The notes: generated from the sequence alone by a model not told the origin. A DNA stretch of 64,000 bases from an uncultured bacterium (GCA_943787795.1 CALSNU010000004.1:160001-224000); one strand, 5' to 3'. Counted from the stretch's first letter, positions 17,860 through 19,951 are shown. A program made the numbers and translations.

Positions 17860-18252
17860 AATCCGGGGAGCGCAGGAGTTAGCAACACCCCCTGCACTCC
17901 CCATTCATTCTGACTCTCTCTCCACGGCGGACCGCCGTTGCACGGCGGGCCTCCGCTTCAAGTCTCTCTCTATCTCTCAATCTCTCACGCCTGCAGAAGC
18001 AAGCTCGCCCGGATCCGTGATCGGATCCGCCGGGTGAGGGAGGCCTCGGGTTCTGGATTCCCCATCGAACCCGTCACCTTTCCACCCCCCTCGCCCTGCG
18101 AACCAGGATCGAGGATCTCGCGCGGCGCGAGCACCAGGTCCGCAGCCCGAGCCGTCCACCGAGTGGACCGCGCAGGCGACACCCTGACCCTGAGCAGCTC
18201 AGCGCGACTCACGAGGCAGAGGCCGTGAAGGTGGGATTGGTGACTCGTCACG
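17860..18252 (-). ncRNA. Candidate sigma54-dependent small transcript (sRNA, or leaderless 88-codon ORF 17985..18251 with structured 3' region)
   Basis: Lies downstream of a -24/-12 promoter. Multiple hairpins, GA-rich tracts, and a terminal 14-bp stem (17865-17902) whose two non-Watson-Crick pairs are G-U only on the minus strand. Confidence 0.45.
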
Positions 18253-18262
18253 CTCCACTGGA

Positions 18263-18278
18263 AGCAAACGGCGTGCCG
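18263..18278 (-). promoter_or_regulatory. Sigma54 (-24/-12) promoter
   Basis: Minus strand reads CGGCACGCCGTTTGCT versus consensus TGGCACG-N4-TTGCW, with exact GG-N10-GC spacing. Divergent from a sigma54 activator gene. Confidence 0.75.
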
Positions 18279-18317
18279 CCCGACAGATACAACCTAAACC
18301 ACTACCAGTAAGCGACA

Positions 18318-18330
18318 TAGCAACCCTTTA
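18318..18330 (+). promoter_or_regulatory. IHF-like site in an AT-rich spacer
   Basis: TAGCAACCCTTTA matches WATCAANNNNTTR with one mismatch. Located between the UAS and the -24/-12 element. Confidence 0.4.
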
Positions 18331-18343
18331 ATGAACCCCTGAT

Positions 18344-18389
18344 GCTACATAAGCGTAGGCTTGCCCGCCTGGGCCTACATCGACGTAGG
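18344..18389. promoter_or_regulatory. Two palindromic upstream activator sequences (CTAC-N6-GTAG)
   Basis: GCTACATAAGCGTAGG (18344-18359) and CCTACATCGACGTAGG (18374-18389), offset by 30 bp, about 100 and 130 bp from the predicted +1. Confidence 0.65.
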
Positions 18390-18427
18390 ATGCGTTCTCC
18401 GCGAGCTCCTCCAGCCCCCTGCCCACC

Positions 18428-19951
18428 TTGACCGTCTCCCCCCAGCCCCTAGAGAGCGATCTACGACTGCTCTTCGCCATCAACCAGATCCTGGTGGGCA
18501 GCCTGGAGCCGCTCTCCGTTCTGGAGCCCGTGCTTGCTGCCCTCATGGAGGGCACCCACCTCCAGCACGCCATCGTCGCCATGGTCCACCGGACCTCGGG
18601 GGAGCTCCGGATCGAGGCCGCCGTCGGCCTCTCCACCGAGGAGGAGCGCGCGGCGAGAGTGCGCGTGGACACGAGCCCCATCGCCGAGGCGGTTCAGCTC
18701 TCACAGCCCATGACCCTGCCCCTCGAGGATGGGAGCCACCCGCTGCTGGGAGTTTGCTCCCAACCCGAGCCGTGCTCGCTCCTCGTCATCCCCATTCAGC
18801 TCAGCGGCGAGATCGTCGGGGCCATCGCCGGGGACTTCCCGTCCAGCCCTCACACCGAGCTCAGCCACGTCTCGATGCTCATGTCGACGGTGGCCTCGAT
18901 GATCGCTCAGGCCGTCCGGCTGCGGCAGCGAGCGGCCGAGGAACGCGACTCCCTGCGGGCCGAGAACGAGCGGCTGCGGGACGCCCTGAAGGAGCGCTAC
19001 CGGCCGGACAACATCGTGGGGAACGCCAAGCCGATGCTCACGGTCTTCGACCAGATCGCCAGGGTCTGCCGCTCGGACGCCACCGTCCTCATTCGAGGCG
19101 AGAGCGGCGTGGGCAAGGAGCTCGTCGCGGCGGCGATTCACTACTCCAGCGACCGCGCCACGAAGCCGTTCATCAAGGTCAACTGCGCGGCGCTGCCAGC
19201 CTCGCTCCTGGAGAGCGAGCTGTTCGGCCACGAGAAGGGCGCCTTCACCGGCGCGCTACAGGAGCGCATCGGCCGCTTCGAGCTCGCGGACGGCGGCACG
19301 CTCTTCCTGGACGAGATCGGAGAGTTCCCCCTCACCACGCAGGTGCTCCTCCTGCGCTTTCTTCAGGAGCGCCAGTTCGAGCGTATCGGCAGCGCCAAGA
19401 CCCGCAGCACCGACGTTCGAGTGATCACGGCCACGAACGCCGACGTCGAGGAGCAGGTGGCGAGCGGGGCCTTTCGCGAGGACCTCTACTACCGCCTCAA
19501 CGTCTTCCCGATCCACGTCCCCGCCCTCCGCGAGCGAGGGGTCGACGTGATCCCGCTCGCCGAGCACTTCCTCGATGTCCACGCGAAGAAGGGCCGCGTC
19601 GCGACGCCGAGGCTCTCGTCCACCACGCGCGCGCTGCTCAAGAGCCACGCCTGGCCTGGCAACGTGCGAGAGCTGGAGAACTGCATGCTGCGCGCGATGC
19701 TGCAGTGCGAGGGCGACGTGATCCGCTCTCACCACCTCCCCCCCAACATGCAGCCCGCCGGCGAGCAGCCGACGGCGCCGAACGGGAGCCTCGCTGCGAC
19801 CATGGAGCGGGTGGAGCGGGAGCTGATCCTCGACGCCCTGCGTTCCACCCGCGGGAACCGCGCCAAGGCCGCTCGTCTCCTGGACATCACCGAGCGCCAG
19901 ATGGGGCTGCGGGTCAAGCGCTACGGCATCGACCCTGCCAGCCTGCGCTGA
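18428..19951 (+). CDS. Sigma54-dependent transcriptional activator, NifA-like (GAF-AAA+-Fis HTH)
   Basis: [53 protein letters not shown]-terminal [11 protein letters not shown]-terminal region GAF-like. TTG start is uncertain. Confidence 0.9.

Follow-up and report, generated by a model that had tools for sequence, protein, structure and literature searches.

Background

Regulatory RNAs as the output of sigma54-type or nitrogen-linked control are exemplified by CbrB-CrcZ, LuxO-Qrr and NfiS/NfiR (for NfiR, PMC6606865). A comparable case is NrsZ of Pseudomonas aeruginosa, described as an RpoN- and NtrC-dependent small RNA (sRNA) of at least 226 nucleotides (nt) encoded beside ntrC, with three conserved stem-loops and a loop sequence that is required for the post-transcriptional control of an mRNA (PMC4253122). 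For Desulfovibrio vulgaris, a regulon survey lists a neighboring non-coding RNA (ncRNA) as the only or main target of the enhancer-binding proteins (EBPs) DVU0653, DVU0679, DVU1419 and DVU2359, of which DVU2359 is a single-component regulator; DVU1949 holds a large nitrogen regulon and controls protein operons (PMC4641369). Here we analyze a 64,000-nt stretch of DNA from an uncultured bacterium (GCA_943787795.1 CALSNU010000004.1:160001-224000; henceforth the window), in which a gene for a NifA-like activator lies divergent from a predicted sigma54 promoter that faces a candidate structured RNA (17860-19951).

NrsZ and the window RNA are alike in their sigma54-type control (predicted for the latter), their position adjoining an activator gene and their multiple stem-loops. 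In contrast to the two-component NtrB/C system of NrsZ and its loops repeating ACAGGCAG, the window features a one-component GAF activator and three different loops, two of them complementary; no sequence similarity between the two RNAs was found (no Rfam match). The D. vulgaris EBP-ncRNA regulons show a comparable arrangement in another phylum. The window activator has the GAF-AAA+-HTH layout common to NifA-type GAF activators and Nlh1 (PDB 4g3w, 4g3k), the latter of which a review speculates to control nitrogen assimilation genes (PMC9866876). It differs from Nlh1 in a GAF match of only E 0.33, in the loss of the group motif and in having an RNA as its predicted target. The CrcZ, Qrr and NfiS/NfiR systems work with Hfq; the window RNA is unlike them in that Hfq was not found in its source genome, and in having neither a repeated protein-binding motif nor a Rho-independent terminator. 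A literature search that was short on subscription papers retrieved no description of this RNA, locus or circuit. The activator-sRNA logic is already known; the module is real and conserved, and its structured RNA is a new candidate.

We propose that the module produces a lineage-specific, sigma54-dependent structured regulatory RNA, which would act in trans through pairing of its loops with mRNAs, a reading to which we assign a probability of roughly 0.58. At the level of comparative sequence analysis, we demonstrate the promoter architecture, the structure on the minus strand, the missing protein-level selection on the reading frame within it, and the fact that activator and element occur together in a single clade.

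A conserved sigma54 promoter with paired palindromic sites

An earlier note on this DNA, made from the sequence alone, had described an intact NifA-like GAF-AAA+-HTH activator divergent from a full enhancer-dependent promoter, and both parts of this description are borne out. The gene at 18428-19951 (+) encodes a sigma54 EBP of 507 amino acids with the Pfam domains GAF (PF01590), Sigma54_activat, AAA lid and HTH_8; its AAA+ domain with an intact GAFTGA motif, N-terminal GAF and C-terminal Fis-type HTH place it in the sigma54 enhancer-binding GAF-AAA+-HTH class. Its top-scoring NCBIfam model is nifA (TIGR01817 equivalog), but at 442.4 bits it does not reach the equivalog cut-off of 528.85 bits and by this measure is not NifA. 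No nif genes adjoin it, the search for such genes in the source genome having been confined to this neighborhood. That genome (G000) is 85% complete and, together with seven further genomes of its genus, constitutes the set of eight carriers of the module compared here. The activator orthologues are 83-92% identical, with a ratio of non-synonymous to synonymous differences (pN/pS) of 0.10-0.15.

The -24/-12 motif lies on the minus strand at 18278-18263, as GGCACG-N4-TTGC, and sets the predicted +1 at 18252, in keeping with the note; it is one of seven strict matches genome-wide, the other six being situated elsewhere in G000. Upstream of it are two palindromic upstream activating sequences (UASs), a proximal one at 18344-18359 (about -107 from the predicted +1) and a distal one at 18374-18389 (about -137), 30 bp apart. 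Both contain the CTAC-N6-GTAG palindrome that the note had reported (at 18345 and 18375), of which the 4.71-Mb genome has a total of three exact occurrences, while palindromes of CTAC and GTAG with other spacings (3-12) have 2-8 genomic sites each. The spacer between UASs and promoter is AT-richer, as claimed (40-53% AT versus ~30% genome-wide); the IHF-like site that was placed in it (18318-18330) fared less well, being a weak match at eight of nine consensus positions, with best matches of 7-8 out of nine in the spacers of the other seven genomes. All eight genomes retain the two palindromes 30 bp apart, the distance to the promoter and GGCACG-N4-TTGC, even as the spacer sequence drifts; this includes the positions beside all seven orthologous activators, where the note had asked for such conservation.

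When the genome is scanned with a matrix built from the 16 UASs, the two G000 sites take the top two places, a ranking that is partly circular because the matrix derives from these same sites; among its top 40 matches, these two alone have a sigma54 motif within 300 nt. Likewise, of the seven distinct exact palindrome matches in five relatives, six lie at this promoter. Of 28 other Planctomycetota loci, 20 have a similar palindrome no more than 250 nt away from the activator gene (500 shuffles: mean 1.8, maximum 8), and in a spirochaete locus (L030) a pair of palindromes 31 bp apart is followed by a sigma54 motif and then glnA. Hence, the distant relatives of the activator give independent support to the palindrome as the putative binding motif. 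The NifA site is TGT-N10-ACA and the VnfA site GTAC-N6-GTAC; the window palindrome is unlike the former and closer to the latter. Two rpoN paralogues are present in G000 (C3:191818-192294 and C4:42047-42523). We consider it very likely that the promoter is opened by the activator bound at the two palindromes.

In both Planctomycetota and Spirochaetota (loci L293-L320 and L029-L043), a palindrome of the CTAC-N6-GTAG type, sometimes paired at about 30 bp, is a hallmark of the wider NifA-like group. This widespread group thereby acquires a testable binding motif (CTAC-N6-GTAG, often paired ~30 bp apart), which could serve to map its nitrogen regulons.

A candidate structured RNA facing the promoter

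Between the promoter and the convergent gene for an SGNH hydrolase there is no protein gene in the seven of eight loci with enough sequence; in the remaining genome (G005) the contig stops 794 nt downstream, with no coding-like frame there. The note's statement that no recognizable gene lies downstream thus extends to the orthologous loci. What is conserved in this region is a core of ~240 nt (17865-18104, minus strand) with four hairpins and folding z-scores of -5.4 to -7.5 in all eight genomes, preceded by a variable 5' part of the predicted transcript (18105-18252, minus strand; 95-143 nt across the eight genomes) without significant structure (z 0.3 to -2.1). All of the following features are on the minus strand. 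Hairpin H1 (18023-18104) displays an invariant 15-nt apex (18055-18069) with the loop GAUGGG and is succeeded by hairpin H1b (17989-18004), four of whose eight pairs are changed on both sides, and by a single-stranded GA tract of variable length (17963-17986). Hairpin H2 (17925-17955) has the invariant loop GUGCAAC (17937-17943) and an invariant CGGAGG in its 5' arm, and hairpin H3 (17865-17902) has the loop GUGUUGCUA(A/G) (17879-17888), complementary over 5 bp to that of H2. A possible further hairpin, H4 (17765-17823), with a CUGCC-containing loop, is poorly alignable (52% mean column identity); it may extend the RNA to ~17765, its membership being uncertain.

Covariation supports this structure: in the eight-sequence alignment, 96.9% of 550 cells are paired and 15 of 69 pairs show changes on both sides, none of 500 shuffles reaches any of five covariation measures, and slid controls pair at 39-52%. 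As G-U cells outnumber A-C cells by 73 to 6 in the core pairs, the structure is likely to belong to the minus strand, the one that the promoter faces, consistent with alifold energies of -114 for the minus strand versus -95 for the plus strand. Its divergence of 0.05-0.22 per site compares with 0.14-0.39 at synonymous sites of the activator (five pairs), such that the core is 2-4 times better conserved, and the 15-nt H1 apex, the H2 GUGCAAC and the H3 GUGUUGCUA loops are invariant. The same data bear on the notion that the hairpins do not derive from the sigma54 promoter at all, being instead repeats at the DNA level or terminators that serve the convergent SGNH gene on the plus strand. While the genome is 70% GC with many short intergenic repeats and the core does lie downstream of a convergent gene, the excess of G-U over A-C points to the other strand, the element is single-copy in the genome, and its loops are invariant while its stems covary; we regard this explanation as extremely unlikely.

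The complementarity of the H2 and H3 loops has a chance probability of 1.5-3% if these two loops are considered and of 3-6% if three are. Since the nested fold leaves only three H2 loop bases open and the loop pairs show no covariation, we treat a kissing contact as a lead, and we consider it evenly balanced whether the two loops kiss within one molecule.

No Rfam family matches at gathering level: a search of Rfam 15 with positions 15000-22000 of the window gave a sole match of E 1.7 outside the element, and the best match at four orthologous loci scored 36.3 bits against a gathering threshold of 52.5 (E 0.25). Housekeeping RNAs were considered and set aside, as 6S, RNase P, SRP and tmRNA were all located elsewhere in G000; T-box, tRNA-like and Y-RNA readings, judged by their consensus features, were dropped in the face of no downstream gene and no Rfam match.

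The open reading frame in the 5' part

The open reading frame (ORF) of 88 codons at 17985-18251 (minus strand) that the note had singled out is present as described, with its GTG start at 18251, the +2 position of the predicted transcript, and a GC content at third codon positions of 0.75 versus 0.90-0.97 in four flanking genes. It bears on the possibility of a short-leader mRNA or a dual-function RNA, with translation of the 5' ORF and a role for the peptide or for the act of translating into H1. There is some regularity in its favor: an AUG stands at +4 to +6 in seven of eight genomes, with an in-frame GUG at +2 in G000, though the 5' region has diverged; the ORF reaches into H1 in all eight; one frame is retained in six of eight across four different spacings; and 7 of 10 differences between G004 and G015 are synonymous in the ancestral frame, this being one of nine frame-by-group tests. 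Set against this, the lengths from the first start codon vary (49, 49, 67, 79, 79, 88, 102 and 104 codons) with five stop positions, and the ORFs of G004 and G015 have a common 1-nt shift. Over all pairs the 5' part has a pN/pS of 1.00 and H1 one of 1.06; closer groups have 0.76, 0.81 and 0.87, and the AUG frame of G004 and G015 has 1.58, values that contrast with the 0.10-0.15 of the activator. Pfam and NCBIfam yielded no match to the ORF product, and its single database homologue is a hypothetical protein of 79 amino acids from Planctomycetota (52%). The comparison thus indicates that the ORF product lacks protein-level conservation; the ORF may still be translated, and we consider the mRNA or dual-function explanation decidedly unlikely. 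Of the two alternatives in the note, an activator-sRNA or an activator-small-protein circuit, covariation favors the former, whereas a pN/pS of about 1 does not accord with a conserved protein.

An activator with apparently retained DNA specificity and a remodeled sensor

In a quick tree of 60 proteins, the activator falls in a clade of 13 rows (support 100) on a long branch (0.72), within a 49-row group (support 95) that also holds spirochaete, deltaproteobacterial and bacteroidete proteins. A database protein (P0007) with 69% identity was dropped as outgroup as its two halves look chimeric, the first matching the clade and the second an unrelated activator; it is possibly an assembly chimera. 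On this phylogeny the activator belongs to the Nlh1/NifA-like nitrogen-assimilation group, which is widespread and whose annotation as NifA is routine. Genes for amt, glnA, gltB, glnD or nitrogenase lie near the activator relative in 9 of the best 14 loci analyzed from a total of 80 non-planctomycete loci, and glnA, amt, P-II or gdh lies within 1.5 kb of it in 11 of 28 Planctomycetota loci.

The two ends of the protein have evolved differently. HTH identity between the clade and the wider group is 66%, comparable to the 68% inside the group, whereas GAF identity is 85% inside the clade and 33% versus the wider group; the GAF of the spirochaete relative from L030 matches Aquifex Nlh1 at E 1e-22, as against the E 0.33 of the window GAF. 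The sensor of the clade has thus been remodeled and, judging from its identity within the clade, is still selected. As the HTH similarity is retained, the GAF has diverged and the nitrogen loci are devoid of placed sites (see below), DNA specificity appears to have been kept while protein targets were apparently lost. Hence, the protein looks like a nitrogen-assimilation activator with retained DNA-binding specificity that now has one strong predicted target, an RNA. Because of the remodeled GAF its signal may no longer be nitrogen; nitrogen or carbon/nitrogen status as the trigger is a tentative guess by inheritance, which we hold at somewhat below even.

Phyletic and genomic distribution

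Names of close homologues in the database point to Planctomycetota, consistent with the planctomycete-like host surmised in the note. Besides G000, 7 of 17 genus genomes have the activator, which at E<=1e-105 was absent from the remaining 156 genomes of the family; a covariance model of the element, built from the sequences concerned, matches the same 7 of 17. In a glutamine synthetase III (GSIII) tree of 16 genus genomes (G000 and G008 left out), these seven carriers form one side of a branch with support 100, with the module-less G014 as sister. The surroundings are also shared: the six orthologous loci with enough contig have genes for a monomeric isocitrate dehydrogenase (IDH) and the SGNH hydrolase to one side, and in all seven loci DUF1553 comes next after the activator. 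In six module-less genomes, IDH and activator are both missing from the 1.5 kb around the SGNH homologue, and consequently no clean empty site was seen. The pattern looks like a single gain of the module in the clade, or its single survival there.

Searches further afield with RNA model R1 recovered three genus members plus one weak 52-nt match (E 0.004) among 150 family genomes, three matches, all of them genus members, among 150 class genomes, and none among 150 phylum genomes; owing to strict filters and the scoring of 13 candidates per genome, diverged homologues could be missed. At the 28 and 80 loci of related activators the RNA model found nothing convincing (best E 0.48 and 0.009, the latter match sitting 3.6 kb from its activator). 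The exact 15-nt pattern occurs in at least 120 loci of metagenome contigs; among the matches listed none has the flanks of the element and none has both downstream loop motifs, which is uninformative, and many of them look like the coding SMGNP motif of dapF. The H2-H3 pattern had no match in viral contigs.

These results have a bearing on whether the element could be what is left of a gene formerly controlled by the activator, either as its orphaned leader (riboswitch or attenuator) or as a deletion remnant. Such an origin would agree with the activator relatives driving glnA, amt and gdh from the same kind of promoter, and with the Shine-Dalgarno-like GGAGG sequestered in H2 and the missing terminator. 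Nevertheless, no orthologous locus with sequence has a downstream gene, purifying selection acts throughout the clade on activator, promoter and structure alike, and the RNA model lacks a convincing match at the 28 and 80 related-activator loci. We accordingly judge it very unlikely.

Proposed action of the RNA

We posit the following sequence of events for the trans-acting regulatory RNA. A signal at the GAF domain would free the AAA+ domains, whereupon activator dimers on the two palindromes would loop to the sigma54 holoenzyme, possibly with help from IHF, and a minus-strand transcript of at least 390 nt would be produced from the sigma54 promoter. The structured 3' core would then work in trans, most probably by pairing of its invariant loops with mRNAs. 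We regard production of a transcript of at least ~390 nt as likely. Given transcription, we lean towards base pairing over protein titration as its mode of action: the loops do not repeat one another, and G000, the one genome searched, yielded no match for CsrA or Hfq.

The same promoter and transcript would also be compatible with a protein-binding decoy or scaffold of the CrcZ/CsrB kind, in which a protein or a ribosomal partner would dock on the long H1 and the H2-H3 kissing module. The structure is compact and strong, its loops are invariant and it may have a tertiary contact, all of which would suit such a role, as would the facts that most invariant bases lie within stems or are only partly exposed and that an antisense target is not clear. 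Conversely, the three loops are mutually different and hence offer no repeated binding motif, and both CsrA and Hfq are missing from what was found in G000; a CsrB/RsmZ-type decoy in particular was rejected on the unrepeated loops and on CsrA not being found in that 85% complete genome. We view a decoy or scaffold as unlikely.

In the search for targets of the RNA, the H3 loop gave a single 9-nt match, placed 24 nt upstream from the gene at C1:486675, which is presumably acyl-CoA-dehydrogenase-like. By the same crude, purpose-made gene caller from which the genes for the target scan were taken, the start context in G000 is C-rich (C at -2 in 57% and at -1 in 62%) with little Shine-Dalgarno signal, and CCC precedes 15.7% of 2059 called start codons, the figure for 14581 internal ATGs being 3.1%. 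When the 4096 hexamers are ordered by their enrichment at starts, CCCCAT, which is complementary to the H1 apex, comes 11th; it is one of 21 hexamers tested, and such a rank has a chance probability of ~5%. The apex is only partly unpaired (0.5-0.97) and has a mismatch at the G of AUG. On this basis it is conceivable, but quite unlikely, that the RNA is a broad, Hfq-independent translational brake whose H1 apex AUGGGGAA pairs with the CCCC-AU start context. By this idea, which in the same degree is doubtful, the H2-H3 kissing module would stabilize or gate the RNA, and the activator, once a master regulator of nitrogen, would have been rewired with a new GAF input to turn on this single RNA. 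If true, it would amount to an anti-start-codon sRNA for a lineage with weak Shine-Dalgarno usage.

As for expression, eleven RNA-library runs hold part of 17500-19951, and four were aligned to the region. The longest listed piece from run X10 covers 17968-18177 (210 nt, 0 differences) and that from run X11, which comes from a different study, covers 17984-18161 (178 nt, 1 difference), both inside the element; the remaining listed pieces of X10 and X11 come from other organisms and match the AAA region over short lengths. We take these contigs as a weak hint that the element is expressed.

Several observations weigh against the trans-acting regulatory RNA. The library pieces are unstranded contigs without level, with 177 further pieces beyond those listed, and carry-over of DNA is possible. 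Run X9, with a 225-nt exact piece, covers only part of the activator, and X1 has near-identical pieces in both flanking genes with none listed over the core, a gap that we do not read as absence; another X1 piece extends across the promoter (18188-18558), pointing to DNA in that library. The cells of the covariation analysis are not independent because the eight genomes are close kin, as is also evident in the GSIII of the six other carriers being 92-97% identical to that of G004, and the structure was derived from the alignment on which it was tested, which inflates the test. The GA tract and the terminal stem of the note are present (17963-17986 and 17865-17902), although the last stem has no U-tract, and no intrinsic terminator was found on the minus strand. 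No outstanding candidate for a conserved mRNA target emerged from exact complementarity and duplex energy over 3484 genes of a single genome, and Hfq was not found in G000. Furthermore, the GAF motif Y..GEG..G.V...G is present in 0 of 6 clade proteins versus 12-13 of 13 outside relatives, a loss that weakens the link to nitrogen, and 0 of 27 loci for glutamine synthetase, amt and P-II in the genus, scanned with 1.5-kb flanks that contig ends cut in some cases, have a correctly placed UAS and sigma54 motif.

With these points taken into account, the proposed regulatory RNA gives one lineage of Planctomycetota a structured RNA that no Rfam family matches, and with it the promoter, activator and binding site that it likely depends on. 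Regulatory RNAs are little studied in Planctomycetota, and sequence of this lineage appears in marine metatranscriptome runs. Its range is narrow, namely one clade of eight genomes within one genus. It presents a compact case of regulon rewiring, in which DNA specificity would have been kept, the sensor remodeled and the protein targets apparently replaced by one RNA, and the circuit is small enough for rebuilding in a laboratory strain.

Further observations on the window and its genome

The SGNH/GDSL hydrolase gene (16707-17544) is frameshifted at ~17287 in the window and has an intact frame in relatives; since an otherwise identical X1 contig is one base shorter at 17287, the frameshift is likely an assembly error in a C run. 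Directly after its stop lies a 17-bp tandem array of 3.9 copies (17547-17613), one instance of the window's tandem repeats, which come to 28 rows, including one of 15 bp x 11.6 and also 26978-27151. Upstream of the monomeric IDH, positions 10011-14088 hold the end of a Na+-NQR-like operon with ApbE (PF02424) and a weak NqrM match, the other ORFs of which are presumably NQR genes. Glutamine synthetase was not found in G000, as opposed to 17 of 17 other genus genomes, probably owing to an assembly gap. A second amt-glnK pair in G000 (C4:704821-705602) looks broken, with a P-II match containing two internal stops and a truncated ammonium transporter. Lastly, at C1:882792-885991 of the same genome is what we take, from its sequence motifs, to be a rhodopsin-like gene adjoining carotenoid-synthesis-like genes.

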